A stretch of 52,140 bases of DNA, counting the filler, from Jimgerdemannia flammicorona (Eukaryota): NCBI GenBank assembly GCA_003990765.1. It is 2 parts of 2 records of this genome, joined end to end, with 100 filler letters (N's around TTAATTAATTAA, not from the genome) between each part and the next. Parts side by side here need not be neighbours in the genome. Positions count along the whole stretch, not along the records: positions 26,124 to 52,140 come from RBNJ01000767.1; 1 more part is not named here. The stretch is one strand, 5' to 3'. Position numbers and translations under genes: made by a program. Positions within the stretch are counted from its first letter, which is position 1; each line of letters starts with the position of its first letter. Below, in pieces: positions 2,350 through 39,700 of this stretch. The notes below the pieces were generated by a model. That model was not told where the DNA came from, did no database searches, and saw only the letters and a list, made by a program, of their open reading frames with translations.

Positions 2350-5300
2350 AGGCAGTATGGTCCTTGAGATTTTTTTAAGCCAGAAGGTGGTTCCCTTGAT
2401 ATCTTGCATATAGAAGGGTCCTTCCTATTTGGGCTCCAGTTTTCGTAACTATGAGGCTTCTACTATATTTCAATACAGTAGAACCTTTTCTCCAATTCAG
2501 ATGGGTTCTAGAGTCTTGTGATTCTTTTCTGCATTCTTCCTTGTCAGCACTTGTGACTTGGTGATATAATCTTCAGCCTTCTTCCTGATTTGGTGTAGTC
2601 TCTGGATTTCTGCATCAACTCATCTCCAAGTTAGGTCTAGATTTGTGGCTGAGATTCCATCAGAATCTTCTCTAAAGAGCAGTTCCCTTGGAGTAAAGTG
2701 TGTGCTCTGTGACTGTATATCTTATAGGACAGAGAGAGTAGTTGGGAGATAGTTATCCCAATTCTCATATGTCTCTGAGATCTTCACTAGAATGTTCTTG
2801 AGGGTCTTATTAGTTCTCTCTGTTTGTCTATTTCCTTGAGGGTGGTACATGGTGGTCTTGATGTACTGGATCTTATATTTCTGATACATTATCTTATGGA
2901 ATCCATTGACAAATTCCATACTGTGGTCTGTTGTGATTTGCTTTGGTGTCTTGTAGCAGCAAATAATTTCTCAGTGCAGAAAGTCAGCTATAGAGAGGGC
3001 ATTGGCTTCTTATAATGCTCCTGCCTCTATCCATTTGGTGAAGAGGTCTACAATAACTATAATATAGTAGTTTCCTGATAGTATTACTGGTAGTGATCTA
3101 ATAATATCCATTGCAATGTGGTGGAAGAGAATAGGCTCAATTCTTGATGACCCAGGTACTTGGTCTTACTGATCTTATTTCTGTTTTTAGTACTTGTTAC
3201 ACTCTTTGACAAATTGGCATAGGTCTTCTTCCATCTTAGGCCACTATATGGTTCTTCTTATCTTGTCATATATGTTGGTTCCTCCTAGGTATCCTTGCTC
3301 ATATACTTCCTTCATTACTTGATACTTCTTGTGTTTGAGTATTACTAGCTTTCCTCCTTTTCTGAGTATAGTGTTGTCTAGTTCAAACTATTTCCAAGTC
3401 CAGTTGATAATGGTGATTGTCCAGGGTTTGAGGTGGTTGGGCATCTTCTGCTGCCTAAGATAGCTGATTAATCCATAGTATAGCTCCTTATTCATGTTGA
3501 ATAGTCTTGATGGGGATGTTTTGAGATGTCCTTGAGAGTACATCAGCATTGGTATTGGTTCTTCCTGAGTGGTGCTTGATAGTGCAGTTATACTCTTGCA
3601 GTCTGTAGATCCATCTGGCATATATTCCTTTGGGGTTCAGGGTGTAGAATAGCCAGGCAAGAGTGGAATGGTCTGTTTAAATAGTGAAGTATTTCATAGC
3701 TAGGTAGTAGTAAAACTTGTCTACTACCCAAACTACTGCTAAGCATTCAAGCTTGCATAACTCATAGTTCTGTTCTGCTCCATGGGTACCTTGGCTTGTG
3801 TAGGAGATGATATATTCATATCCATCTTTCTTCTGAGCTAGGACTGCTCCAAGTCCTATAGTACTTATATCTGTCTGCAGGATGAATTCTAGGTTCCAGT
3901 CTGGTCTTCTGAGGATAGATGCTTGGGTCAACCTGGTCTTGAGTTTATTGAAGATTTCTTGGTACTCCTTAGTCCATTCAAATTTTGTTTCCTTCTTCAG
4001 TAGCTTGTAGATAGATACTGTGATGTTAGAGTATCCTTTGATAAATCTTCTGTAGTAGCTGGCCAGTCCAAGGAAGGCATGGACTTCTGTGATTGTTCTG
4101 AGTCTTGGGTAGACTGCAACAGCCTCAATCTTCATGGAGTCTGTGTAGATTCCAGTCTGGTTGATGAGGTGTCCTAGGTAAGCAATTTCTTGAGCTGCAA
4201 ACTTGCATTTCTTGGGCTTGATATAGAGGCCATGCTCCTTGAGCTTCTTGAGGGCTAGCTGTATGTGATTGATATATTCCTGTATAGTGTTGCTAAAGAT
4301 GATCATATCATCAACATAGACAAAGAGCCATTTTCCAATCTTATTACAGAAGACTCTATTCATCATTTGCTGGAAACTTGCTAGGGCATTGCACATTCCA
4401 AATAGTATTCACAGGTAGATATAGGTGGCATCAGGTATGATGAAGGCTGATTTCTCACTGGTATCTTGAGTGAGATCAATCTGATGGAAGCCTGAGAACA
4501 GATCCAAGATAGTGTAGTATTTGGCTTTACTTCCAAGGGTAGTAAGGATTTCTTAAATATTTAGCAAGGGCTGCTTATTCTTCTTGGTGATAGTATTGAG
4601 CTTCCTGTAATCAATGCAAAGTCTTGGTGCAAACTCTCCAGGCTTGCTTTCTTTCTTCAGGACAAGGACAATGGGTGAGGTCCAGAGGCTGATAGCTTGC
4701 TTGATGATTCTAGCTTCTTCCATTTCCTTGAGTTCTGCTTGCAGCCATTCTCTGTAGGCAGGTGGTATGGGTCTGGCTTTCTGATAGATGGGCTTGGTAT
4801 CACTAGTGTCAACCTCATGATAGTACTTGGGTTCTTGATTGTGGATATCCCTAAAGTCTGTAGCAAGTACTCCTTTGTTTTGGTGCAGGATCTTGAGAAG
4901 TTGTTCCTCCAGAGGAAAGTTTTCTCCAATGATATATGTGTGCTTATTCTGGTTCTTGTCTTTCTTGTGTTCAAGTTTGATAATCTTGGTGGTGGCATAG
5001 GCTCTTCTTCCAGTAGATCTAAAGCCTTGTTCTTCTCTCTTGGTCTTGATGAGTTTGATGGCTTCTATGATCTTGGGCTTCTTGATTTTGTAGATCAGCA
5101 TTTGGCCAATCCTATCATACTTCTTGACTTTGAAGGGGGTGATGTGGTTGTGATTTCTGACTATGAAGAAGATCTTGTCAGTGTAATCAGGGTCAATTAC
5201 TCCTCCTTCAACTGAGATTTCACTTTTGGCCAGACTGCTCCTGGTCTTGATAATTTCAACATGGTTCTCTAACAGCTTGACTTCAATTTCAGTACCAAGT

Positions 5301-6340
5301 AGGGTAGTGGTCTGTGGTTTGAGGGTAACATCTTGAATGCTGGTAAGGTCTATTCCTATAGCTCCTTCAGTCTTGTATTCTAGGATCTTGGCTTTGGGGT
5401 GAAACTTCTTGACTTTGAGAGTGATGTCTGATTCTTGTTCCTCCTCATCATCACTGTCAGCCTAAAGCTCTAGGGACTGGTCATCTTCTTCAGCTTTTGT
5501 TTTTGCTTCAGTGGCTTCTTGCTCATATTTCTGTTGGCAGATTTTCCTGACTTCACTGATACAGGACCAGTAGTCATTCAGGTATTCAGAGCAGTACATC
5601 CTAGTACTATGAGGGCATCTTTCTTGAGGGACATAGCCATCAATGATCTTGTTGTATCACTGCTCATCTGTGAGCTTGGATGTCTTGTTCTTGTTCTTAT
5701 TCACTGAGTGTATGAAGACCTCTGTATCCTCTTCATCTCCTTCCTCTATGTCTAGTAGAACTCCTTTATGGACATTGATAGAGACTCATACCTTTCTTCC
5801 TCTATAGTTGATCTGCATCTTCTGGGCATTGAGGTCAATGATGGCCTTGGCCTTGTGAAGCTATTGGTTACCAATGGGAATATTATAGTTGGTGGTACTT
5901 GTAACAATCACATCTACTGGGATGGTAGCTCCTCCTATCTTGATGGGGACTTCTCGGATTTTGCCAAGGGGGGTAGCTCATATACTATCTACTGTAATAT
6001 AGACCATCTTGGTAGACTCTTCAATGTCCCAATCTAGGCAGTCAATTGCCTTCTTACTCATGAGACATCCTCTAGTACTGGTATCAATGATGGCATCAAA
6101 GATACAGTCTTTGATCTGACATGAGGTATAGGCTGATGTCTTGCACTGGTCTTTGGATTCTTTATCTGAGTTTTCAGATTCTTCCTGTGCATTGTGAGCT
6201 TCTATAATCTTGTACTCTTGATTCTTGGCAGTAGTTACAAGTTCTACTCTCAACTGCTATCTGAAGGCAGAGACTTCAGCTAGTTGTCCAAAAGTAGTAT
6301 TGATCTTCTGTTCCTTAAGGTCCTTGTAGATATCATACTT
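2350..6340 (-). pseudogene. Gypsy pol: aspartic protease, dUTPase, reverse transcriptase, RNase H, integrase; multiple stops
   Basis: AIIDTS (PR), RLCIDYRKLN, YVDDMII (RT), FLGLASYYRRFI, ILQTDIS (RH), YHPQGNRQTERTNKTLK (IN). Confidence 0.93.
5009..5425 (-). pseudogene. dUTPase domain inside Gypsy pol, between PR and RT
   Basis: In frame with ORF 4553-5101: VKKFHPKAKI, GAIGIDL, RSSLAK, GGVIDPDYT, DRIGQML, REEQGFRSTG. These correspond to all five trimeric dUTPase motifs. Confidence 0.9.
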
Positions 6341-6369
6341 GTGAATCTTGGTCTTATACAGCTTCTATT

Positions 6370-9300
6370 TTTATTTTTTAGTCACTTGGACTCCGTCTTT
6401 ATTACCAGTCTACAAATAAGTATACAATATCACTACCCACTAACCGATCCCCATAGGGGGGCCCCTCCCTACCTCTTCCCATATAAAGACCACTCTCTCA
6501 CTAATGACTCCAACCCTCCCACCACTCTGACCACAGATTTTCACCACCAAGTGGTGCCTCCGACCCCCCTGCAGCCCCCAACCAAGCCACCAGCCTGTCA
6601 AGATGTTCTCCATAAGATACTGCCACCATGATACCCAGCTCCCCAAGCTCTGTCACCTCTCCTCCTCAAATACAAATAGCCAGTAACTGGCCAGCCCAAC
6701 CCAAATAGCCAATGCCCAGCCTAAAGTAATCCACTCCACTCCTACTCCTCCTATCAGTCAATCCCTCAGGTCCTCTCACCTTCCCTGTATATCATCACCC
6801 CTATACCTCACTCCCAAGCAGTCCCCAATGGCCTACCAAAAGTCTCCCAACACCTCACACTCCCCTAGCCAATGTTCTGGCATCTGTACAAATCCCCCTT
6901 CCTGCCCTACATTATGGCACTCCTCATAGTTGAAGTAGCCCCCTATGACAAGGTGTCCTGAGCAGAAATTAAGCATTACATTCCTCTCAGCACGTGCCAC
7001 CAGACCACCCAGTACTTTGGCGGCATCTATTTCTTCACTGTAGCACTCCAGATCCAAACCCTATGCCAGTCCCACTCCTCTCCAATTCCAACTCCTTGCC
7101 AACCACTAGGCCACAGATCCTGGCCTAGCCCCCTTTGGCATTCTACTCTATCACCAATGTTGAACTCAGGTAAAGGTACTCCACCCAGTAGAATGCCATC
7201 CCATCTCCACATCGCCAGGCCCCAAGCCCTCTCCCCCTCATTCCCTTGCCAGTGAATACCAATGTAGTGTGCCCCCTCTGCTATCCCCCACCAGAAGCCT
7301 TTATATCGCAGTTGTGCAGTGTTCTGAAGTCCAACTAATGAAAGAAGATCACCAGTCAAGCCTCTTGGTGATGACCACCTCTCTCAGACCTTCTGCAGCA
7401 GGGGAACCCAACCCCCTCCATGCAACTCCACTGCCCTCTTAAGCCACCATACCCACAAGCAGTGTAGTTGTTTGGGGAAGTCCACCAGCCCAAGGCCACC
7501 TCTCGCCACCAGTAGGGACAAAGTCTCCCAACTAATCTGACTCTGTCCGCCAGCCCAAATCTATCCCTTGGCCACCTTCACCAATCTCTTCACCACCCAG
7601 GCTGGGAAGTCCAGATAATAAGCCAAATACCACAGCTTCGGCAGCCAGTATATATTCAGAATCGAGATCCTTCCTGCCAGAGAGAAGTGTCTTCCTCCCC
7701 AACCCTGCAGGTCCTTCTCCCAAATTCCAACCCTCTGCTCCCACCACAGCCTGGGCAGAACAGACCTATAAACCAACAAATAGATGTCCAAGTACTGCAC
7801 TGCCTCTCTGGTGGGGAGAATTGTTCCAATAATCTCTCCTCCCACCAGACCATTGCCCAGCACCATTGTTTCACACTTGTGCCAATTCAGCTTCACCCCA
7901 GAGTTCTCCTCATATCACTCCATGGTCTTTTTGAGCTCCTTGACATCAGTAATCACTCCCAAACCAACTGCCATATCATCCGCAAAGGCTCCAACTTTCC
8001 AGCCAACTCCATAGATAGAGAGCCCCACTATCCTCTGCTGAATTCTGTCCATTAGAGGTTCCAAAGAAAGAGCATACAAAATGGGGGACAATGGGTCCCC
8101 CTGGGGCACTCCCCTACCCAGAGAGAAAGCCACCCCTCTATGCCCATTACACAAGAGTGCAGTCCTACTCCCTTCCAGTAGGCTGACCATTGCTGACCGA
8201 AATGGGACTGGAACCCCAATTCTATCTAATACTTTCACCAGCCAGACTCTCCACACCCAGTCATAAGCCTTCTCCTGATCCAAGAAGACAAGACACCCAT
8301 CCAGTCCACAGGCTCTAGCACCTTCAATAACTCCATGTACCCACGCTGTACCATCTCTAATAAGCCAACCCCTGATGAAGCCCCTCTGCTCAACACCAAC
8401 AATTTGCTGGGCTACCTTCTGTAGCCTTGCGACCACCACCTTAGTCACCAACTTTTGGTCCATATCTAGTAACATTATCGGCTGCCAGTTCTTCCAATCC
8501 TCATGCCTTCCTTTGTTCTTATAAAGCAGCATCACCAGCCCAAGATCCTGCTCCCCCACCCATCTTCCTGACTGCAATATAAAATCACACAGTGCTGTCA
8601 TCTCCTCCATCATGCCCGGGACTCCAATCATTCGCTTCCAGAAGTCCCAGGGTAGGCCATCCTCCCCAGGTGCCATACCTGAGACTGTCACAGCAAGAAC
8701 CTGGTGGATCTCATCCTCCTTTACAGACATCCCCAGGTCACCTAGTCCCTCAGCTTATAGTGGGTGCCAATCCTCTAATGTTCAGTCAATGGCTATAGCC
8801 TCTGCCCCACCCTCCTCCTCACTCCACAATCCACTCCATTGCTCCTTCAGTGTTCCAAGGATATCCTGTACACCATGCACTAGTACACCATCCGAATCAA
8901 GTACCCCTTCCCACTGCTGCTGTACCCTTCTTGCTCAAAGTATCCTCATGAGAAACTTGGAAGGCCTCTCCCCTTCCTTCAGCCCCTGCCAATGAAGCTG
9001 TGCCACCAGGCCTTGCATTCTTGACTCTTCCTCTTCCCGCAGTACCTGTTGTAGTTCCCCAACCTCCATCTTTACCCTCATTATCCTCCAATCCTCTACT
9101 CCCTCCACTACTATCAGACTTACCCATTCCTCCAGGAGCCTAGCCAATCTAGTAGAAGCCCAATGCACTCTCTGCCTTCGCTACCTCCCAGCCTCTCTGC
9201 CAGCCTCGCTCCAGTACATCCTGGCCATCTCTTTCATCCTCACCCACCAAACCCCAATTGGGGTCCCTTCCTGCTGCCAGTTCTCCACCTTCAGCTGAAT

Positions 9301-12243
9301 GTCTTTCGCCCACTCCTCCCACCAGAACTCATCATCCATCAAGGAGGAATTTAGGCACCAATGTCCAGACCCATCACCACTTCCCCCAAAACACCCCTGT
9401 CTCAAAAGACCCCAGTGATCTGACCACAGACAACATTCCACCTCTAGCACCTTCCAAACATCACGGCCCCAACAGTTGGCTATCAGAATCCAGTCAATCC
9501 TTGTCCCCAGGCCTCCAGCCCAATGAGTATATACCCTCCTGTCCCCCCAGTACTCCCTACCAGTATCCATCAGTGCTCCTAGCCATTCGACTTCCTCCCA
9601 TATTGCCAGCCCCCCACTCCTGCTCTCAGCACTCCATCCTCCATCAGTTCTATCCAACTGTATATCCCAAACCATATTGAAGTCTCCACCAAGCATATCC
9701 ACCCCAGTCTCAGCAAGAATCCCACTCTTCTGGAGCTCTTTCACCCAATCCACATGCTCCCCCTGCATGGCAGAGCAGTAACAGGAGCCAACTGTGACTG
9801 GCTCCCAACCTGCACAAATTCACTTACCCCAGACCAGTCTCTCCCCCTAGCTCCTCACATTCCTTATCTCCCCTCTGCCTTTCCGAACTAGAATCCCAAC
9901 CTTGCTGTTCCAAATTGCCACATCACCCTATTCCTTTGTCCATTCCATCCTATCAGAATCATCCTCACACCTGATATCCTGCAAGAGGAAGAGATCGGCC
10001 TCCAATCCCTTCAGCCAAATAAAAATGTTCCTACATCTAACTGCTCCCCTTAGCCCATTCATGTTCAAAGAAAAAATGTTGATTGTACTATTCATAATGA
10101 AATACTGTTTGTTCTCAGTCGATCTCTACTGCTCTATGCTCATCTCCTCCTGTGCCATGTCCAGATTATGTTCTGCTATCACCTCCTCCTCTTCAGCCCT
10201 CTGAGCCTCCAATCCAGCCAACAGCTCATTCATCTCCTCATCAGCCTTCTTCTCAAACTCCTCTCTGTACTCAATGCAAGCCTCCTACCAGAGCTGCAAT
10301 CCATAATGCTTGTTCCAACAGTACTTAGCCCTTTCCCCAGTGATAACTGCCATCTCTGCCTCCCACTCTTTGTCCACCTCATATCCTTCCTCCTCCAAAT
10401 ACACCACAAGAATTTCCACCTTCAGTGCCATTGCCACTCCTTCCCCCTGCAAAATTCTCATCCAGTGCTCGTCACTCATTCCATATAAGTCCACCTCCCC
10501 CAACTCTTCTGCCACCAGGTTATTCATCATCTGGTACATCCAAAGTAAGTTTCCCACCTCCTTCCCTCCAGGGGTCACCAGCCTCCCTCTGTCCAGCATC
10601 ATGGTGTTAGCTCTGGTACTCGCATCCTCATCCCACACCTCCGGGACATCCACCAGTTCCTCCTCTCCGGCTGCCACTACTTGATCCCCACTCATCACCT
10701 CCAGAATACTGAATTTCACCTGCTGGGTCCCCAGCATTGTCACGTCCTCCCCAATCTTGTTTCTGGAAGCCGGGTCATACCTGATAAGAGGGGAAGGAGT
10801 GGGGGAGTTCTCCCAGACTTCATCCCAAACCTCCAAGATGCCATCAGCATATGGATCACTAATCTTCACCTCTTTTGCCTTCCCTGTCTCCACCCCATCA
10901 TCCCCACTCCTCTCGCCAGCCCAGATGCTCGCTCCAGCCCCTTCCGCACCTGTCTTCTTGCTCGCATCCTTCTGTGGTCCACTCCCCAGTTTAGCCAGCA
11001 GATCCTTCTGTCTCTTCTGCCCCTGAGCCCTTTCCCACTGCACCTTGTCCACTTGAATCCTCTTTCCATCCACCATCTCTAGGTATGTCGACTCCTCGAA
11101 AGTCTTCCAGGCCTTAGCTCACTGCTCCACAGCCCCATCCAGTTCCTTCAGCACTTCTAATAAATCCTCTTCCTCTTCTTCACTTCCTTTCACCCTTATC
11201 ACCTTGCACAGGATCACTCTCCAACCCATCACCGAAGGCCAGTCCCTCACCTTCCCAGTAGCCTCTTTCCCAGCCAGCTGAATCCTCACATCCACATCCC
11301 CAGTTCGGAGCGTAGTCCCTTCCCAGACCCTGAATCCGATATCCACCACCTCTCCATACTCTGTCATAACATCCTCTACTCTCTTTCTTGTCTCTATTGC
11401 CATCACCATGGGTACTCCTTTCACCAGCAGTTGGACCATCCTCGGATCCCATTTCAAACATCTCGCCATTGGTACACACACCTCCCCAACCACCAACCCA
11501 ACCTTCAGTACCTCCTCCAGCAGTTCAGCCTCCTCAAAACCCACTTCTACACCCTCTAGTCCCTTTAGAAATTTCACCAAAGCAGCTCCTGCCACCTGCT
11601 TAGCAATAAGCCCCAGCACCATTTTCACCATCACTGCTAAGCCCTGGAAGTACAGTGTAACCGCGAATGCTGAGATCGATTTCTTGAGTAACGGGGCCAC
11701 CACCAGGCCCATTACGCCATCCACCAAATCACCTTATCTTCTAAGCCCCAGCTGCTCAGCCTCGCCAACAGCCATCATATCTGGATTTTTTTCCAGATTA
11801 GCAGTCCCATCGCCATCAGCAGTCACACTCCCCCCAGCCACTACTCCCCCAGCTTCACTGCCCCCCCTTCCAAGGGCCACTCCCCCTCACCCTGCTGCCT
11901 TCTTGTTCTCCTTGCCCCTCCTCAGCCAGCCCTCCAGCCCTGATGCCTGCTGCCTCCCCTTCACCATCTCTGCAAAGCTCAACCTCCCAGACCCCTGACC
12001 TCTACCAGTACCTCCACCCCTTCCTTGTCCACCTGCCAGCAGCCCCCTTATGCTCCCTCCCAGGCCTGGGCCCCTCCCAACTTGCTGCTATTCGAAAGCA
12101 CTTGGGTCGCCCTGCCTAGTACACATCTCAGCTCGCCTATCAGTTGTCATGTTGTTAGTCTCTTTGCTCCAAAAACGATGTTATGAGTGCCTTCCAAAGG
12201 TTGTGTAACCTGAGTGGTACCAGAGAAAGATGTGTACTTGGTC
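6370..12243 (-). mobile_element. Full-length non-LTR retrotransposon (LINE, L1/Tx1-like) inserted into Gypsy gag; inactivated
   Basis: ORF1 about 12150-10100. ORF2 about 10095-6440 with APE (SLNMNGL, GGDFN, RIDW), RT (DQEKAYD, GVPQGDPLSP, FADD) and a C-terminal EHWLGEC. Short A-tail. ~29-bp TSD at 6341-6369 and 12244-12272. Confidence 0.93.
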
Positions 12244-18168: not shown

Positions 18169-18613
18169 TGTTATCATGAGAAATTTTTCCAAAATATCAT
18201 ATGCCATTTCACCCATCTTTGATTCGAGTCCTGCTTGTGCAGATGGAGCCGTAGATGAATTCGCTGCGAACGTGATTCAGAATTGACGGTGATGGTCTTG
18301 GTGCGTGGCATGTCGTTAAAGGAGTTTCGAACATTCGAAATCTTTCCAAAGTTTATGAGGTCATCAGGCCGCTGTCACCAAGACGTAAGGTAAACGCAGT
18401 ACACAGTTTCGCCCTTGCTCAAGGGGCTCATCAGTTGGTTCAAGAGCAACCAAGACCGGCGTGGGACCTGCGCTGATACACCCAAGGCGTTCCACCCTAA
18501 GCTGGCCTACTCACGTGACACTGAGGAATGACGTGTAGCAAACAATGAAGGTGACTCAGCCCCGCAGTCAAACGTTCCTTTGCACATTTCAATACTCTGC
18601 CAAGAGCATTGCA

Positions 18614-20093
18614 ATGGACAATTCCTCACAAAACGAAATCAGGATCACCTCCCATGCCACCCCAGCTTCAAACGACACCGACTTGGAACTTTTCTCCGAT
18701 TTCCAAATCCCCCGTTTGCAACCAGCTAGCGTGACCCTCGGCAACTTTATCGGTCAAGGCGCCTCAGCCCGTGTCTACAAGGGAACCATGCAGGGCTCAA
18801 CTGTGGCAATTAAGCAGTTCAAATTTCTCGTCTTATGTCCCGATGCCAAGGAGGTGGAGGCCACCATTCGTAACGAGTTGAAACTCCTCGGTCGTCTCCG
18901 TGACTCCAACTTTATGTTGCATACGTTTGGGTATATCCATGAGGCCTGTATGCTGTCGATTGTGATGGCCTATGCTGAAAACGGCGACTTACGGGGGTGC
19001 TTACGTACCGGAAAGCTCGCAGGCGACTGGCTGATAAAGGCCAAGTTTTGCATGGACATTGCAGTGGCGTTAGAATCTCTTCATAAACAAGGGATTATTC
19101 ACGGCGATCTCAAGCCAGAGAATATTCTGTTGGACAGTTCCCTGACACCAAAAGTAGGTTGCGAATTTTAGTTGATTAATGTGGATTTTCTAGTATGGGT
19201 CTCGATTTTAACAATTTTGTATTATCATTAAATATATTAAGATTTCAGACTTCGGCCTGAGTAAGACCTTCACATCCATCTCTCGAGGCTCTCAGCTTGG
19301 GCGAACTCTCCGCTACATTCCTCCAGAGCGTCTCTCTGATCAAAAGCTCACGCACCAAGAATTAATCCTGTGCGACATATATGCGTATGGGTTGATCGTA
19401 TTGGAGGTCGCAACAGATGGCAAACAGCTATATGGAGAAATGAGTAATCAGGCTGTGATAATCGCTAAAATTCGCGCAGTTGCTCAGCCGCATTACACTA
19501 GCGACCTTCCTTACGATACACCTCGGACATTTCGGGATATCGTAAATCAATGCTTGAAGTGTAATCCGTCAGACCGTCCATCTCTCACTTTAGTGCAGGA
19601 TTCATTCAAAGCATACGCTGGTAATACCCCACCGCCTCCGTCACTCCCTCGTACCGTCCCCAAAACACTATCACCGGTGCCAATCAAGGAAGGGGATAAT
19701 GGCGGGAGCACCGAAAGCAATGGTGGTGATAAGGAAGAAGGTGATGGACGAGGGAGAGAATATGTTAGAGTAGTATATGTTAGCAGTAGATATAAACGAG
19801 TTAGACAATTACGACGACGACGACTTCGATCAGGTGCCACAGAAGTGAGACCTTGTTCCACAGAAGTGGCACCTGGTCACGGGACTCTGCCACGTCCCGT
19901 GGTCATTATCGTTATTTTTTTTTTTTTACCCGGAACTGAGTCCGGGTCCGACGACCATGTAACGCCACCCATTTCGTATAACAAGCGACGCGTCATCTGC
20001 AGACCTACTCTAAACTCTACGGAGATGATTCGCGTTGAAGTTTCTAGGTACGAAGTGACCTCGCTGTGCCATGCACATTTTGCTTTGTCTTGA
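18614..20093 (+). CDS. Tyrosine-kinase-like (TKL) protein kinase, copy 1; intron 19154-19241; 3' end uncertain
   Basis: IGQGASARVY, VAIK, HGDLKPENILL. A GT-AG intron restores K-ISDFG, followed by TLRYIPPE, DIYAYG and PSDRP. The ATG at 18614 is shared with copy 2. Confidence 0.88.
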
Positions 20094-22068
20094 AACGAAA
20101 GGAACCACCCCCGCGATTAGTCGCAGCGAATCGCTGCTTTGCGGTGAAAACACCCTAAGTCACCAATGAAAATCGCTCACGACCCAACAACTTTTTTTTG
20201 ACAAAGCAGTATTCTACATCGTGGTTTGAACCATGGCAAAGAAGGTGCTAAATTACGCGTAAACGTCACCGTCTCGGCAAGCCCTGCATAGGACAGAATA
20301 TAGAACTTTTTGTTTTTGGAATCTCTGGGGTTCTATTATTGTATTGAGGGGAATGGGGAGGGGGGGGGGGGTTTGTTGTTTTTGGAACAATGTCATTGCT
20401 CTAATATTATAATATACTTTATAAAGTTCATTATTTACTATGGATACAAGAACCATCAGCCATCCATTATTTAACCGCATGTTTTCTCGGAAAAATTTTG
20501 CCGCGATCTTCTGTATGATCCATAGGTAAGAGAAGTGAGTATTTGTGAGCAGTCAGATGTAGAAAAATTTGATGGGATGATGTTAGATGGTGGGTGAGGA
20601 AAAGAGGTGGAATGCAGTTTGCGCCGTATCTTTCAGTGAGCAACATATTTGAACTAAATTGACACCTTGCAAAATCATGAAAGGGCACAAAACAAAACCG
20701 GAATCTCCGAGTCGTTGTTGATAAATGACGACATTACTTTTATATGCCAGTCGACAGTGTCCAAGGAGAAGTTATGACGCGGCCTCGATACGATGGATCG
20801 ACCAACAGGGTGTGTATGACGTGATCAGATCTGCTGGAAGAAGCCGCGATCCGCACAAGCCCTACATCATTACCATTTGTCGCGATGAGAATCTCGTGCA
20901 CAGGGGATCAAATGCTTGTGTGCTATTCGTTAACGTGCCAATGAATGCAATGACAGAAGGATCTACGCCCACTGTAAATGGTAGTCGATATAAGATGATA
21001 GCAGGAAGCACACAATTATAGCACGAGCGTGGTGAAGCCTTTAAATTGTCCACACAAGTATCATTATTGCAATGTTTGGCAAACCAATTTATATTTTTAT
21101 TTTGAGTTACTGAACGGTCTACTTGATAACTGATTGGCCACGTTAATGGCGCCTTTCCAAAAACTCTTTGATTTGTTACAAGTGCACCAAAAAATCGTTC
21201 GAGCTGTCACTACACAAAGGGAACAGACAAACAAAATCGAAAATGAAAGCTGCTCCAATAGATATGAAAAACACGTCCAGCTTGAATGTTACCAAAATAG
21301 CCTCTTGAATCGAACTTCGACGTCTGCTGGTTTTGTTTCGATATCGAATGAATGAGCGGCCCTCTCAAATATAGACAATAATATTCAAATGATGGATGAC
21401 ATGAATGTATCACTCTAGCAAAATATTTGATGACGAGGATCGAATTTGATAATAAAATTCCAAAAGTCCACGGAAAGGAAAATAGGCAAAGAAATATTTT
21501 CAAGCAATGATTATTAAACGGGACAAAAAGTCCGATGTGTGATAAAAAAATATTCTGATCCCCATACCCATCAGAAACCCAAACGAACAAGCCAATTTCC
21601 ACTTTTAACTATCCACTCATGCTACTCACACATTTTTGATCCTATCGAGCGCTTCTTTCGACGAGAGGATTCGCTGCTGCCGATGTTCGAGCGTGACGAG
21701 TGGCACCAGAATATGAGCTAATATACAGTCACACAGAACTTTTTGGCGGAACAACATAGTTGACTACATAATTACGCCATGCTTTTGTAGTATACCTGGA
21801 ATGAGATCTTTCTAAATTCACGAGGTCTTCGACGACGTTTCGGACTTGAGGTTTTTCCGCTGTTCAGGAAAGTAAGTTGTTAATTAGCAAATTCGTATTC
21901 GTATATACAAGACTTTATCCACGTGATCTTCCAAGCGGGTGGCCAGGTAACGACCAATCCCAAGAGAAACTGGTGACGTGTAGCAAACAATGGAGATGAC
22001 TCAGCCCCGCAGTCAATCGTTCCTCAAGTCACATCCCAATACTCCCAATACTACTCCCAAGCACCGCA

Positions 22069-23428
22069 ATGGACACTTCCTCACAAAACGAAATCAGGAT
22101 CACCTCCCATGCTGCCCCAGCTTCAAACGACGCCGACTTGGAACTTTTCTCCGATTTCGACATTCCCCGCTTGCAACCAGCTAGCGTGACCCTCGGCACC
22201 TTTATCGGTCAAGGCGCCTCAGCCCATGTCTACAAGGGAACATTGCAGGGCTCAACTGTGGCAATTAAGCAGTTCAAATTTCTCGTCTCAAGTCCCGATG
22301 CCAAGGAGGTGAAGGCCACCATTCGTAACGAGTTGAAACTCCTCGGTCGTCTCCGCGACTCCAATTTTATGTTGCATACGTTTGGGTATATCCACGAGGC
22401 CCATACACTCTCGATTGTGATGGCTTACGCTGAGAACGGCGACTTACGGGGGTGCTTGCGCACCGGAAAGCTCACAGGCGACTGGCTGAGAAAGGCCAGG
22501 ATTTGCGTAGACATTGCAGCGGCGTTAGAATCTCTTCATAAACAAGGGATTATTCACGGTGATCTCAAGCCAGAGAATATTCTGTTGGACAGTTCCCTAA
22601 CACCAAAAGTAGGTTGCGAATTTCAGTTGATTTTCTAGTATGGGTCTTGATTTTAACAATTTCGTATTATCGTTAAAATATATTAAGATTTCAGACTTCG
22701 GCCTGAGTAAGACCTTCACATCCATCTCTCGAGGCTCTCAGCTTGGGCGAACTCTCCGCTACATTCCTCCAGAGCGTCTCTCCCGTCAAAAGCTCACGCA
22801 CCAAGAATTAATCCTGTGCGACATCTATGCGTACGGGTTGGTCGTATTGGAGGTCGTAACAGATGGCAAACAGCTATATGGAGAAATGAGTAATCAGACT
22901 GTAATAATCGCTAAATTTCACGAAGTTGATCAGCCGCATTACGCTGATGGCCTTCCTGACGACACACCTCGGACATTTCAGGAAATCGTAAATCGATGCT
23001 TGAAGTATAATCCGTCAGACCGTCCATCTCTCACTTTGGTACAGGATTCATTCAAAGCATACACCGATAATATCCCATCGCCTTTGATACTCCTTCGTAT
23101 CATGCCCGAAACCCTATCACTGGTGCCAATCAATGAAGGTGATGACGCGGAAGAGGGAGGTGATGGAGGAGGGAGAGAATGTATTAGACTAGTACATGTA
23201 TATGTTAGCAGTAGACGTAAACGAGTTAGACAATTGCGACGACGACGACGACTTCGATCAGGTGCCACAGAAGTGAGACCTTGTCCCACAGAAGTGGCAC
23301 CTGGTCACAGGACTCTGCCACGTCCCGTGGTCATTATCGTTATTTTTTTTTTTTTTTACCCGGGACTGAATGCGGAAACGACTTGGACCTCCGACTCACA
23401 TAAATGTAACGTCGCCCATTTCGTATAA
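22069..23428 (+). CDS. TKL protein kinase, copy 2 (tandem paralogue); intron 22609-22687; 3' end uncertain
   Basis: Same catalytic motifs and intron position as copy 1; nucleotide sequence highly similar. Confidence 0.88.
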
Positions 23429-26023: not shown

Positions 26024-26123
26024 NNNNNNNNNNNNNNNNNNNNNNNNNNNNNNNNNNNNNNNNNNNNTTAATTAATTAANNNNNNNNNNNNNNNNNNNNN
26101 NNNNNNNNNNNNNNNNNNNNNNN
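26024..26123. other. Assembly gap with artificial TTAATTAATTAA linker
   Basis: N runs flank a palindromic 12-mer that stops all six frames; total length 100 nt. Confidence 0.97.
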
Positions 26124-26319
26124 TCTAAATGCTATGCTAAATCGGGGTATTCGATTTGGATAATGTCTAAGAAATTAGACAATGTCGAAATCGAGGACTG
26201 CTAACTATAAGGCTATACTACTTTGGGAATGGGTGCGATCAAGTGTCTATTCCCTATTTCCTTCTTCCAAATTCGACTGTACTGTCACAATGTATAACTA
26301 CTCTAAACCAAGAATAGGA

Positions 26320-33003: not shown

Positions 33004-33788
33004 AAATCGTTCCCTTAGTTTAGCTCGGACTCGGTTAATGTACGCCAGTCTCAGCGCGCATTGCAGTTCGTCGTCGTTTTCTTTACCGTCCATTCTCGTC
33101 GTTTCCGTTGCCGTCCTTTCTAGCACGAAGTCGTACGATATTTAGCAATTAGTCGTTAGTAATTGTTTGTCAGTAATTTCGTATCTTCAAGTTTGCCTAC
33201 CTCTCCCACCCATCCCTCATGGTTGAAGGGCAATAAACGGCCCCCTTCGCATATGAACGCGAATGGCGGGCCTTGGGAAGCGCATCCTTCCTTATAACAA
33301 AACCCATTACATTACATTACATTACATTTTCTTCGCAACACGTATTTTCGTTTACATTTATTTCTATGCCGGCATTTCTTATGCGACGTTTACATATATT
33401 GTACTCTGGTCTTTATGCGACGAGACACTTTGAAATATTATCTATTTACCAATATTATAAAAAAATAAAAATATTAAATAAATCGTACTAAAAGTACTAT
33501 CTAGAATAATATATATCTAATATAAATATTATTTTCTTTTTAACCAGAGACTTACAAGCATGATAGAGTATTTATATAGATGTAACAATCCATTAAACAG
33601 ATATGATATAATGGGAATGGTTGAATCCAAGACAGCTTATTTAATACTAAGCGCTTTTCACAGTGTTAACCTCGGCATGCTGGCGGATTCTAAATTGAAT
33701 AGCACTAGTCAGAAAGATTTTAAAAACTGTTTAACAATGACGCCCATCATACCTTTGTTATCCAGCTGAAAAAGCCTCGTGACAGGGT

Positions 33789-36700
33789 CTAGAGAAGTGG
33801 TGAAAGCACAAGAACATCACGGCCGATGCTTTCTACTGAAAAATGCACAAAACATACGTCAGCTGAATCGAAACACCCACGTTCAAACAATTTCCGACAT
33901 ACCTTTAGACTTCAGAGACTTGGCGCCCTCGACAGAGATTATATTCTCTAAAAATACACATATATCCAAACATCAGCTGAATTTAATCACCCAAATTGAA
34001 CCAGCCACAAACTGATTTCTATCATATTTACCTGATATATTTAGCTTGCTTAGTGTTATGTTATCCGTTGGAACCTCGGCTAGGGCATAGGCACCTTCAT
34101 CGCTAATTTCGTTAACTATAAGGAATACGCACACGTCAGGATCGAATCACAAACATTCAAAAATGCAAACACTAGTTTCGGGCATACATGCGAGATCCAG
34201 CTCAGTAAGGGTTGTGTTCTGTTTTAACGACACTGCTAGAGCACGGGCACCCTCATTGCCAATTTTGTTATCTATAATGAATATGCGCTGTCAGCTGGAT
34301 TGATTCCCCAAAATTCAAACAGCTACATATACAATTATTTTTGACATACTGCGGAGATTCAAATCGGTCAGAATATTGTTCTTCTTCAGAGATTCGGCCA
34401 GAGCACGGGCGCCCTCAGATTTGATTTCATTCCCTAAATATGGACACATCAGCTCTGGATTAGACCACACACATCGAAACAGCATATACTGATTTCTGGC
34501 ATACCTAAAAGATTAAGCTGGGTAAGCGTCGTGTTATGCTTCAGAGACTCGGCCAGAGCATAGGCACCCTTAGCGCCAATGTTATTCCCTGGAATATTCA
34601 CAAATTGAATATGTCAGCCAGATTGAGTCCCTCATATTCAAACAGTCACACTTATTTCCAACAAACCTGGGAGATTCAGCTGCATAAGCTTCTTGTTCCG
34701 CTTCAGAGAGTCGCCTAGAGCACTGGCACCCTCATCCCCAATTCCGTTACCTGTTATGAATAAGTTCACGTCAGCTGGATTGAAGTACCCACATTCAAAC
34801 AGTCAAACACTTATTTACTACATACTGTAGAGATTTAGATGAGTAAGCGTCGCGTTGTGTTTCAAGGAATTGGCCAGAGCATGGGAACCCTCAGCACCAA
34901 TGTTATTCCCTGAAAATTCATATAAATGCACATGGCAGCTTGATCGAATTACACACAGTCAAACGGTCACTCGATGACTTCCACTTACATAAGAGATTCA
35001 GCTGGTTAAGAGTCGTGTTTTGCTTCAGAGACTCGGCCAGTGAACAAGAACCCTTAGCACCAATGTTATTCCCTAAAAAATGAACGTATTTGCACACATC
35101 AACTGAATGGAATCACTCACATTTAAACAGTTACTCACTGAATTGCGACATACATTCCAGATTCAACTGTGAAAGGACAGTATTCTGTTTCAAAGACTCG
35201 GACAGGGAACGCGCACCCTCATCGCCAATTCCGTTATCTAAAATGAATTTGCACGCTTCAGTAATATCGAATCACCCACATTCAAACAATCACATACTGA
35301 TTTCCGATATACCTTCGAGATCCAAAAGAGTGAGGGTCGTGTTCTGTTTCAGAGGCTCGGCCAGAATATGGACACCTGCAGCACCGATGTTATTCCCTGA
35401 AAATTGCACAAATATGAATACATTATCAGGATCGAATCAAACACTCAAACAATGATTTCCAACATACATTTGAGATTCAGCTGGGTAAGCATCGCATTCT
35501 GCTTCAGAAATTCGGCCAGAGCACGGACACCCACAGGACCGATGCTATTCCCTAAAATAGAAATAAATATGGACATGTCAGCTGGATCGAATCAAACAGT
35601 CATAAATTGATTTCCAAATTACCTTCGAGATTCAGTACGGTAAGCGTCCTGTTCTGCATCAGAGACTTTGCCAGAGCATAGGAACCGTCAGGGCCAATCT
35701 TATTATCTGAAATTTGCAAAGTTATGGTTACGTCAGCTGGATCGAATCAACCTCATTCAAACGAGCCACACTTATTTCGAACATACTGGAGAGGTCCAGC
35801 AGGGTAAGCATTGTGTTCAGCTTCAGAGATTCGGCTAGAGCACGGGTACCCTCAGCTCCAATGTTATTCCCTGAAAAATTCAAATATGCAATGTCAGCGG
35901 GATAAAATCGCCTAAATTCAAACAGTCATTGACTAATTTCTGACATACTGGAAATCCTAAGTTCGGTAAGCGTCGTGTTCTGATTCAGAGACTCGGCCAG
36001 AGCACGGGCACCCTCAGCACCGATGTTATTCCCTGAAAAATGCATAAAAATACACTGGTCAACTCAGTCGAAATACCTACATTCAAACAGTTGCACATTA
36101 ATCGACGACATACCTGAGAGATCCAGTTGGGTTAGCGTCGTGCTCTGTTTTAAAATGTTTGCTAAAATGGCGCTTCCTTCGTCGCCAATTTCAAATTCTA
36201 AATAAAATTAAAATGTCAAATATTCTCTAAGTTAAATGCTGATGCTTTAAAATATAAAAATATAAAATAATCTCCTTACCAGAGAAATTCAACAGAATAT
36301 GATCTATGACATTGCCAGAACATATATTGATATTGTCATTTCTGCTCACTAAATAATGAAGTAATATACGGATTTAATCTATATGAATTATTATATATTT
36401 TATCATAATATCTATAAAATAATTATAAATTCTCAATTACATACTTTCAAAATCCAATTCTGGGTATATTTCACATTCATCCATTATATGTATAATATTA
36501 TATATAAACGTTTACACTTAATATATAGTGATAAAATTATTCAAAAGATTAATCATATAAATACTTACCATTATATAAGAAATTGAAAGATAAAAAATTA
36601 AACTCTACTGAAAGAGATAAGTTTGAAATATCAATAAAAGTATTAACTATTAGTTTTATCAAATATATTAAAATAATTATATGTATTATGATTTTTAACA

Positions 36701-39700
36701 TACTTTGAAAATTTTGATAAGTAAGGGTAGTGATCTGTTTCAAAGACTCGATCAGAGAGCAAACATCCTCATCTTCAATGCCATTATCTAAAAAGAATAT
36801 ACACATGTTAGCTGGATTGAATCACCCTTATTCAAAAAGTCAAACACTGATTTCTGACATACTTGGAAGATGCAGCTGAGTAAGTGTCTTGTTCCACTTC
36901 AGAGACCCAACCAGAGCACGTTCACCTTCATCGCCAATTATATTATCTTTAATGAATATGCACATATCAGCAGGATGAAATGACTGACTGATAATAAAAC
37001 ATTCACACATTCATTTCCTACATACCTGAGAGATCAAGCTGGGTAAGCATCGTGTTCTGTTTCAAAGACTCAACCAGAGCACAGGCTCCTTCATCACCAA
37101 TTTTGTTATCTATAATGATTATGCACACGTCAGCTGGATCGAATCATGGACAATCGACCAGTCTCACGCTGATATCCATACCTGATAGATTCATCTGTGT
37201 AAGCGTCGTGTTCCAATTCAAAGACTCGGCCAGGGAACTGGCACCTTCGTCGCCAATTCTGTTATCTGTAATGAACACACAAATATAGTCATATCGAATA
37301 ACTCCCATTCCAATAGTCACATATTAATTTGCAACATACCTGAGAGATTCAGCTGGGTAAGCGATGTGTTTTGCTTCAGAGACTCGGCCAGAACACGGGC
37401 ACCCTCATCATCAATTTCGTTATCTATAATTATTAGGTATACGTCAGTAAATGAAAACGTACACATTCAAACATTGTCACACTAATTCCAACATACTTTC
37501 GAGATTCAGATGGGTGAGCTTCGAGTTTTGCTTCAGAGACTCGGCTAGAGCACGGACACCCTCAAAGCCAATGTCGTTATCTAAAATGAGTCAGCTTGAC
37601 CGAAACATCTCACTAAAATTCATACAGTCAAACGACATACGTTCAAGATTTAGCTGGGTAAGCGCCATGTTCCACTTGAGAGACTCGGCCAGAATAAGGG
37701 CACCCTCATCGCCAATTCCGTTACCTATAATGAATATACACACGTCAGCTGGATCGAATAACCCACAATCAAACATTTACACAATGCTTTCCAACATACC
37801 TGAGAGACTCAGGTGGATAAGAGTCATATTCTGCTTCAGATACTCAGCAAGAGCACCGGCACCCTCATCGCCAATTCCGTTATCTATAATGAATTTATGC
37901 GTACATCATTTGGATCGAACCACTCACATTCAAACAGACATACACTGATTTCACCGATTTCGAACATACTGTAGAGATTTAGGTGAGTAAGCGACGTATT
38001 CTGTTTCAGACACTCAGCTAGAGCACAGACACCCTCGGCACCGATGTCATTCCCTGGAGAATAAATATGCACTTGTCAGCCGGATTGAATCACATACAAT
38101 CAAATAGTCACATAATAATTTCGGACATACTGGAGAGATTAAGTTGGGTAAGCGTCATGTTCTGCTTCAGAGACTCGGCCAGAGCATGAGAATAGTCGCC
38201 AATTCCATTATCTAAAAGGATATATGTATCAGATGGATCTCATATGTAAATTGTCTACTGATTTCCTACATACATTCCAGATTCAGATGGGTAAGTGTCG
38301 AGTTCTGCTTCAGAGAATTAGCCAGAGCACGGACACCCACAGCACCTATGTTATTCGCTGAAAAATGCACAAATATGTACACGTCAGCTGGATCGAATCA
38401 CCAACATCCAAAGAGACATACATTGATTTACGACACACATCGATTTATGACATACATTCCAGATTCAGGTGGGTAAGAGTCGCGTTCTGCATTAGAGACT
38501 TGGCCAGATGACGGGCACCATCGGCACCAATGCTATTTCCTAAAAAAAAAAAGCAAAAAATATTTACACGTCAGCTGGATCCTATCTCCTACATTAAAGC
38601 AGTCACATTGACTTCTGACCTAATAGATTCAGCTGGATAAGCGTCGTGTTCTGCTTCAGAGTCTCGGCCAGAGCACGGGCACCCTCATCGCCAATTCCAT
38701 TTTCTATAATGATTTGTACACGTCAGCTGGATCGAATCACGCAATTTCAAATTGTCACACACTGACTTCCAACATACCGTAGAGAATCAGCTGGGTAAGC
38801 ATCGTGTTCTGCTTCAGCGACCCGGCCAGAGAACGTGCTCCCTTAGCACCAATGCAATTACCTAAAAAATGCACAAACATGCAAACTTCAGATGGATCAG
38901 AGCACCAAGATTCAAACAATCACATACTGATTTCTGAAATACCTAAGAGATTCAGTTCGGTAAGTGTCGTGTTTTTCTCCAGTGACTCGGCCAGAGCATG
39001 GGCACCCTTAGCGCCGATGCCATTCCCTGAAAAATGTCCAAATATACTCACGTCAACCAGACGATATAACCCACATTCAAATATTTACGCACTGATTTTC
39101 GACATACATTCGAGGTTCAGCTGGATAAGCGCCATGTTCAGTTTCAGAGACCCGGCTAGGGCAAGGCCACCCTCATCGCCAATTAAATTCTCTATAATGA
39201 ATATGCACAAGTCAGCTGGATCGAATCACGCACATGTAAACAGCCATACATTGATTTTGATATACCTCCGAGATTCAGGTGAGTAAGCGTCGTGTTCTGT
39301 TTCAGAGCCTCGGCCAAGGCATTGGCACCATCATCGCGAATTCCGTTATCTATAATTAATATCCACATGTTTGTTGGATAGAATCACCCCCATTCAAACG
39401 GTCACACACTGTTTTCCGACTTACTGTTGAGGTTCAGCTGGGTAAGTGTTGTGTTCCGCTTCAGAGGTTCGGCCAGAGCACACACACCTTCGTTACCGAT
39501 GTCTAATGACATTTACATGTGGAGGTTATTGATACTTATATACAGCCAAATTCTACGTTCGATATTGATTTAACGAGTATTTCAACGTTTTTATATACCA
39601 TACCTGTGAATTTTAGGTTTTTAAAAATTCCTTGATGCATCGCCCAAACCATCGACTCAAATTGCTTGCTTTCCAAAGATAGCCGCGGCGCCGTTTTGCC

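Follow-up and report, generated by a model that had tools for sequence, protein, structure and literature searches.

In vertebrate NOD/NLRC proteins, as described in excerpts of Hoss et al. 2019 (PMC6642158), each 28-residue leucine-rich repeat (LRR) is encoded by one frame-preserving exon and the exon border is constant, lying 'within the beta-sheet'. The same excerpts propose this exon layout as a precondition for alternative splicing, which is shown there for NLRP3, and they also name the lamprey variable lymphocyte receptors (VLRs). For fungal NLRs, excerpts of Dyrka et al. 2014 (PMC4986451) report no LRR motifs, the repeats being TPR, ANK or WD, and describe the highly conserved repeats as near-identical, intron-free and variable in number. 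Likewise, excerpts of PMC9815663 give ANK, TPR or WD in place of LRRs and list CHAT among the N-terminal domains. Neither 'LRR' nor Jimgerdemannia occurs in 12 of the 17 supplement files of a 2025 Sordariales survey (PMC12258605), and a literature search on leucine-rich repeats in Jimgerdemannia gave nothing relevant, although a fungal NTPase-LRR protein may already have been described in print. Here we describe an array of single-LRR exons in the genome of Jimgerdemannia flammicorona (assembly GCA_003990765.1). The array lies on the minus strand at 33903..39502 of a stretch of 52,140 nucleotides (the window), which is made of two parts joined by 100 filler letters, with N's in two runs (26024-26067 and 26080-26123, 88 in all); positions 26,124 to 52,140, which include the array, come from record RBNJ01000767.1. 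The array is best explained, and with reasonable probability, as the sensor domain at the C-terminus of a STAND (NLR-like) protein, produced by old tandem duplication and spliced constitutively. This explanation starts from what is observed in the DNA, namely the anatomy of exons, introns and phase, the homology of the introns, the class of the repeats, the absence of recent duplication and the domains of the neighbouring open reading frames (ORFs).

The locus resembles the vertebrate NOD/NLRC genes in having one 28-residue LRR of the ribonuclease inhibitor (RI) type per exon, frame-preserving exons with a constant border and, if the fusion predicted below is right, LRRs placed after a STAND NTPase; the likeness is to the published description excerpted from PMC6642158. 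An earlier reading of this DNA, made without database searches and here called the sequence-only reading, had drawn the same parallel with vertebrate RI-type LRR exons, and for NOD/NLRC it is indeed in print in those excerpts. The locus differs from the vertebrate genes in its fungal host, in the domains ahead of the LRRs (NB-ARC-like and DUF7779, TPR and ankyrin, not NACHT) and in its array introns, which are 60-98 nt long and still mutually homologous. With fungal NLR-like STAND proteins it shares a putatively NB-ARC-type NTPase, TPR and ankyrin, and it has relatives in J. flammicorona and other Mucoromycota. Unlike the fungal NLR repeats in the excerpts of PMC4986451, its repeats are LRRs, are 0.61 identical in protein and have one intron per repeat. 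The same class of repeat, with the consensus NxIGdeGAxALAeaLKxNttLtxLnL, is found in RNI-like/LRR_6 proteins of early-diverging fungi (Mortierella alpina P0195, J. flammicorona P0340 and P0258), but these models have 8-22 repeats and no NB-ARC. Two other proteins, P0198 and P0232, are similar to the proposed product in that matches to STAND NTPases precede LRR_6 repeats. Somatic assembly of a lamprey VLR proceeds by copying flanking cassettes into a gene that is initially incomplete. VLRs share with the window array the use of short LRR-encoding cassettes, from which receptor diversity is built in the lamprey; unlike theirs, the cassettes in the window are plain exons that share one orientation and one frame and have canonical splice sites.

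The reverse complement of 33700-39700 contains a run of short open stretches, each flanked by an upstream AG and a downstream GT. When these are joined as exons in phase 1, a predicted frame of 923 codons without a stop is obtained. It is made up of 33 exons, 32 of which encode a single RI-type LRR while the last, of 45 bp (33947-33903, minus strand), encodes half a repeat. Spliced-frame translation gave 30 exons of 84 bp, one of 81 bp (38211-38131, minus strand) and one of 78 bp (39502-39425, minus strand), the last being the first exon of the array; the repeat is 28 residues long in 30 of the 32, 27 in one and 26 in another. The length of every one of the 33 exons is divisible by three, the only two changes in exon length being of -3 and -6 nt, and all are in phase 1, with the codon cut after its first base. 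The exon border also has a constant place in the repeat, one base past the LxLx strand, throughout the 33. The first array repeat lacks its first two residues. The sequence-only reading had anticipated this layout closely: its coordinates, 33903..39502, are exactly the start of the first LRR exon and the end of the last short exon, its count of 32 exons each encoding one repeat of 26-28 residues is reproduced by the translation, and its assignment of all exons to phase 1 holds for 33 out of 33.

Beyond the half repeat, a terminal coding exon (33789..33835, minus strand) starts in phase 1 after a 67-nt intron and ends in a TAG stop at 33789. A model of the repeating DNA unit matched a decayed further unit at 33830-33692 (nhmmer, E 9.6e-6, model positions 6-157). 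As the terminal exon and the sequence past the stop together make up this decayed unit, the current stop codon arose within a former repeat.

The nature of the duplicated unit was established from the introns. Mean pairwise identity is 0.654 among the 31 short introns between repeat exons and 0.687 among the 32 repeat exons (exon maximum 0.857). Because the short introns are mutually homologous, the duplicated unit is exon plus intron, as had been proposed in the sequence-only reading. In exons the identity at codon positions 1, 2 and 3 is 0.73, 0.74 and 0.59. The DNA unit profile found 32 full copies in the window, together with two decayed 3' pieces (33913-33851 and the 33830-33692 piece described above), and no significant copy elsewhere in the window.

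Comparison of the units with each other gave no sign of recent exchange. The best pair is 0.80 identical, the mean is about 0.68 and the nearest relatives of each unit are scattered over the array. Identity is flat with distance (0.656-0.681 at lags 1-12), with no neighbour or block structure. The longest exact repeat within the 5.6 kb array is 28 bp, which by our own estimate would be about what chance gives at ~69% identity over roughly 80,000 pairwise positions. In protein the array repeats are 0.61 identical, and no near-identical units of the kind seen in the highly conserved, recombining repeats of fungal NLRs were found, the maximum unit identity being 0.80. With units this diverged and without structure, and with no exact repeat beyond 28 bp, no trace of duplication, conversion or unequal exchange in the recent past can be seen, and homologous exchange would now find little substrate. 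A phylogeny of units had been suggested as a check for conversion and block duplication; the unit identities, with no pair above 0.80 and no fall with lag, show neither. These results suggest that the array was amplified in an old burst, after which the units diverged independently. A D-A-A triplet alternation of unit subtypes, noticed by eye, was discarded when no period was found in the plot of identity against lag.

The array repeats are RI-type LRRs. Their consensus is x-N-x-I-G-(D/A)-E-G-A-x-A-L-A-E-S-L-K-Q-N-T-T-L-T-x-L-N-L-x, and they follow the RI-type pattern LxxLxLxxNxIGxxGaxxLaxxL of 28-29 residues. Over the 32 repeats I4, L12 and L22 are invariant, and N2, G8, L16, N19, L25 and L27 are conserved at 0.91-0.97. 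Three single-exon ORFs scored 28.1, 27.1 and 22.7 bits with Pfam LRR_6 (PF13516), two of the three being above the cut-off of 23.4. Among solved structures, the repeat profile matched a ribonuclease-inhibitor-like protein, 5irm/5irl, a GALA protein, LRRC34, DRC5 and ribonuclease inhibitor.

The residues that vary most are at position 1 (3.11 bits), whose codon is split by the intron, and then at positions 28, 3 and 10. Positions 28, 1 and 3 flank the LxL strand, the usual ligand-contact area in LRR proteins. Between units, the ratio of non-synonymous to synonymous change (dN/dS) is 0.43 overall, above 2 at positions 1, 3, 10 and 28 and 0.27 on the remaining scaffold positions; this is a comparison among paralogous repeats, and the set of four positions was picked after the entropy table had been drawn up. 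The pattern would fit surface positions that are relaxed or diversified on a constrained scaffold, which falls short of proven positive selection.

The exon-intron structure is a prediction from genomic DNA, and we infer splicing itself from it. All 34 predicted introns that bound the array exons are GT..AG; 21 of them start with GTATGT, and in 28 a YTRAY branch-like motif lies 8-45 nt ahead of the 3' splice site. Retention of any of the 34 would introduce an in-frame stop. The array introns are 60-98 nt long, plus a single intron of 506 nt, with modulo-3 classes of 16/4/13, and their GC content is 0.30-0.44 (0.19 in the long one) against 0.48 in the exons. No conserved RNA structure was predicted in the array introns (RNAalifold, 0 pairs, 31 introns). 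The sequence-only reading had taken exon lengths in multiples of three beside variable intron lengths as implying selection on splicing. The lengths are as it gave them, but what they show is selection on the reading frame and on the 28-residue geometry. A fixed exon length beside a variable intron length would be an indirect sign that the introns are removed, and not a sign of selected splicing choice. Exon skipping is rare in fungi under intron-definition splicing. The short introns and strong donors found here fit constitutive splicing of this type, which is the most likely mode for the array.

Two unit subtypes can be told apart by the 3' end of the preceding intron: IGDEG units follow introns ending ...TTCATTATAG, and IGA(E/K)G units follow longer introns ending ...TTTGTGCATTTTTCAG. 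On the plus strand, antisense to the array, open frames of 123-167 codons span several units including their introns (35084-35455, 37451-37948 and 38783-39286); none of the three has a Pfam match, and they were dismissed as chance frames.

The long AT-rich intron (36198..36703, minus strand, 506 nt, GC 0.19) lies mid-array between units 18 and 19, which are the most degenerate repeats of the array. Unit 19 has no in-frame ATG upstream and must therefore be spliced to unit 18. The intron contains two mini-ORFs that are open in phase 1 and have splice-like borders, at 36607-36569 (39 bp) and 36348-36280 (69 bp), and donor-like sites at about unit spacing. A search for unit traces in it gave only nhmmer matches with E 0.27 and 0.45, which are not significant. 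It may, speculatively, hold two or three dead units, of which the traces are faint, and it may also be speculated that units 18 and 19 with this intron form a hinge between two halves of horseshoe size.

The DNA immediately upstream of the array may encode the N-terminal part of the protein. A large exon (39604..41958, minus strand) lies within an 824-residue ORF, 42013..39539, that encodes a P-loop NTPase with the motif GLGGMGKS, DUF7779, TPR_10 and ankyrin repeats (the NB-ARC-like ORF). In Pfam, DUF7779 (31.3 bits, cut-off 27), TPR_10 and at least three ankyrin repeats are above cut-off. Its relatives P0081 and P0083 carry PF00931. Kin of the ORF include paralogues of 79-80% identity in J. 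flammicorona and relatives of 34-56% in other samples and in Calcarisporiella, and P0069 (hypothetical protein BC938DRAFT_482652, Jimgerdemannia flammicorona) is 100% identical over 52% of it.

A predicted junction intron of 101 nt (39503..39603, minus strand, GTATGG..TAG, phase 1) would connect the ankyrin exon to the first LRR exon. Its donor at 39603 leaves the large exon in phase 1, as in every array exon, and the tail of the large exon, ...IFKNLKFT, resembles the end of an LRR strand, one base into the codon, at a place homologous to the ends of the array exons. Exactly two residues are missing at the start of the first array repeat, and as this tail is strand-like, the preceding exon would complete that repeat. 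The GC content is at least 0.40 over 33.7-43.9 kb; neither junction has an AT-rich spacer such as those that flank this region, where GC is 0.14-0.30. Phase, repeat position, close spacing and GC continuity together make it rather likely that the array is fused to the NB-ARC-like gene. The junction intron also contains an alternative start, an in-frame ATG at 39512, which is 26 nt past the upstream stop.

Further upstream is a second ORF (42047..43808, minus strand, 589 residues) with a CHAT (caspase-like) domain (59.9 bits, cut-off 24). It ends in the first half of a second P-loop NTPase, in which Walker A and B are present and which stops before the helical part; AAA_16 and NACHT matches to the ORF are below cut-off, and there is no significant similarity between this NTPase and the NB-ARC-like one. 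A candidate intron of 88 nt (41959..42046, minus strand, GTAAGT..TAG, phase 1, in frame) would join the CHAT ORF to the NB-ARC-like ORF, giving the reading ...KIVRGVFKFF-A-STMDVNVESSE.... The alternative is two adjacent genes, the second beginning at the ATG at 41950, and it is at the counterpart of this ATG that relatives of the NB-ARC-like ORF start. The odds that the CHAT ORF forms one protein with the NB-ARC-like ORF are put at about even. If joined, the two would hold one and a half NTPase modules. The arrangement may be the scar of a rearrangement, or simply two packed genes.

Relatives of the array were sought in protein sets. A profile of the repeat gave 35,984 matches at E <=0.001 in 1.84 billion representative proteins, the best scoring 620 bits over 44 stretches, and names were looked up for 30 of the 150 matches listed. 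Among these 1.84 billion representatives none matched with the per-repeat score expected of the array's own product, and the array seems to be unannotated in public protein sets.

Three of the relatives bear on how such arrays are built and how they behave. The record of P0258, which comes from another contig of this J. flammicorona strain, is a partial protein labelled LOW QUALITY. In it, good repeats alternate with recurring non-LRR stretches, which start after L-N-L-x and end before x-N-G-V-G. These appear to be introns left in the protein model, at the position in the repeat where the window introns lie, suggesting one repeat per exon there too. The nine recognisable repeats of P0258 are 0.87 identical in protein (0.61 in the window array), some being identical to one another; unlike the array in the window, this one looks to have been recently expanded or homogenised. 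P0280 and P0340 are one Crinkler-MYND-LRR gene in two strains, with 455 of 457 residues identical in the shared part; both have the same eight repeats, so there is no change in repeat number between the two strains.

Two further matches bear on the domain order. P0198 (KAI8814434.1, from the chytrid Cladochytrium replicatum) has 18 LRR_6 stretches together with weak TIR_2 and weak nSTAND/NB-ARC matches, which are below the Pfam cut-offs. P0232, an ENA protein, has two NB-ARC/DUF7779 modules and then LRR_6, and its NTPase is 24-26% identical to that in the window. NB-ARC/DUF7779 joined to LRR_6 therefore exists outside the window locus. The two proteins suggest that NTPase-LRR layouts exist in early-diverging fungi.

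On this basis the protein would have an NB-ARC-like NTPase, DUF7779, TPR and a few ankyrin repeats, followed by 32 RI-type 28-residue LRRs, with CHAT possibly first. Its array would have originated in an old burst of tandem duplication of a unit of ~160 bp (an 84-bp exon and an intron of ~75 nt). The duplicated exon would have been in phase 1 at both ends, because in-frame tandem duplication is possible only so, and each duplicated copy would have inherited working splice signals. After duplication the copies would have diverged singly, the geometry of the repeat holding the exon at 84 bp while the introns drifted in length. Scaffold residues would have stayed under purifying selection, leaving positions 28, 1 and 3, adjacent to the beta-strand, free to change. 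Intron-definition splicing would remove all introns constitutively to give one long LRR solenoid, which the degenerate units 18 and 19 may split into two horseshoe-sized halves. By analogy with the NLR family, the product is most likely an intracellular STAND receptor in which the LRR solenoid acts as a sensing or auto-inhibitory domain.

Several observations weigh against such a fused and constitutively spliced receptor. In the NB-ARC-like ORF both NB-ARC (15.8 bits, cut-off 23.5) and nSTAND_NTPase5 (22.4 bits, cut-off 34) are sub-threshold. The public model P0069 stops within the ankyrin region, short of the array, and the better-modelled relatives P0072 and P0075 run on into long ankyrin arrays. 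Among the relatives of the ORF, LRR_6 was found in none of the 68 longer matches and none of the 120 near-length matches listed (764 found), and DNA and protein profiles found LRR units in none of 40 metagenome loci that encode relatives, most of these loci being short or bacterial. With regard to splicing, some sites in the array are weak (GTCAGA, GTTTGT and one AAG acceptor), which leaves room for skipping. In addition, 17 intron columns are at least 0.8 identical with the donor and the last three columns excluded, which is more than the third codon positions suggest. A conserved CTGAC in the introns, read as the branch site, would account only partly for these 17.

The first alternative that these points raise is an LRR-only (RNI-like) gene of its own, which begins at the ATG at 39512 and has as its neighbour an NB-ARC-TPR-ankyrin gene ending at the stop at 39541-39539. 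This ATG is in frame and 9 nt ahead of the first LRR exon, and the upstream ORF has a stop of its own 65 nt beyond the proposed donor. RNI-like proteins with LRR_6 only are common in Mortierellales and are also present in J. flammicorona, and the listed matches of the NB-ARC-like ORF are without LRR_6, as stated. However, the 26 nt from stop to ATG are too few to hold a 3' end, a promoter and a leader, and the AT-rich spacer seen at all other gene boundaries in the window is missing here. The strand-like tail that the upstream exon leaves behind in phase 1, at the homologous position in the repeat, and a first repeat that is short of its first two residues, as for a unit completed by the preceding exon, also argue for fusion. 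A separate gene is for these reasons considered unlikely. That the array is the remnant of a decaying pseudogene is extremely improbable. In keeping with decay, units 18 and 19 and the 506-nt intron make the middle of the array AT-rich and degenerate, the 3' end is a decayed unit, there is no public gene model of the array and the locus lies amid retrotransposon pieces; yet 923 codons remain open over 33 exons, both changes in exon length are in threes (-3 and -6 nt), splice-site pairs are intact in 34 of 34 cases and the scaffold dN/dS is 0.27.

The remaining alternative concerns what the array does. The sequence-only reading had suggested a receptor-diversifying device, in which skipping of symmetric exons or frequent unequal crossover alters the number and order of repeats. 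Its statement that either process would keep the frame is true by construction, all exons being phase-symmetric. The 33 frame-preserving exons with junctions at one fixed place in the repeat, the few weak splice sites and the possibility of dead exons in the AT-rich middle intron are all compatible with such a device. The split codon encodes the most variable residue (3.11 bits), so that a new junction would place a new residue on the predicted binding face. The human NLRP3 gene, according to the excerpts of PMC6642158, has a symmetric LRR exon whose alternative splicing affects function, and the array of P0258 in the same genome, with repeats 0.87 identical, indicates that the family can expand or homogenise. 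On the other side, the window array has no near-identical units, no block structure and no exact repeat longer than 28 bp, and it thus shows no recent exchange and offers a poor substrate for it. The related LRR gene P0280/P0340 keeps its repeat number in two strains. The symmetry itself needs no further explanation, because origin by in-frame exon duplication already requires it. The array introns, at 60-98 nt and with strong GTATGT donors, are of the kind expected under intron-definition splicing, and no conserved intron RNA structure that could steer exon choice was predicted (0 pairs, 31 introns). The diversifying device proposed earlier is consequently regarded as quite improbable. Slimmer still is the chance of an NB-ARC-LRR receptor varied at the RNA level, where exon skipping, or pseudo-exonisation of which the AT-rich middle intron may be an instance, would yield receptors that differ in length and carry new junction residues on the binding face; if true, a coenocytic mycorrhizal fungus would be building a receptor repertoire by splicing, convergently with the exon-modular NLRs of vertebrates.

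The main interest of the locus is that a fungus probably has an NB-ARC-type protein whose sensor consists of RI-type LRRs, encoded by 33 unannotated symmetric micro-exons. If the fusion is true, this would be an NB-ARC and LRR protein with the classic NOD-LRR layout and a vertebrate-like structure of one repeat per exon. As the public model stops before the array and the sister array P0258 is a low-quality model with read-through introns, micro-exon arrays of this type are likely to be undercounted in surveys of predicted proteomes. The array is also a clean natural case of tandem duplication of exon plus intron in which the intron copies are still recognisable.

Apart from the array, the NB-ARC-like ORF and the CHAT ORF, the window contains a tandem pair of protein-kinase genes and pieces of retrotransposons. 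The kinase genes are on the plus strand at 18539-20093 and 22000-23428, each consisting of two ORFs parted by a short gap. The retrotransposon pieces, on the minus strand at 3677-5461 and 7915-8754, encode reverse transcriptase, RNase H and a dUTPase domain. The 6-kb stretch from 6000 to 12000 stands apart from the remainder of the window in its GC content of ~0.5 and its strong negative GC skew (to -0.53).

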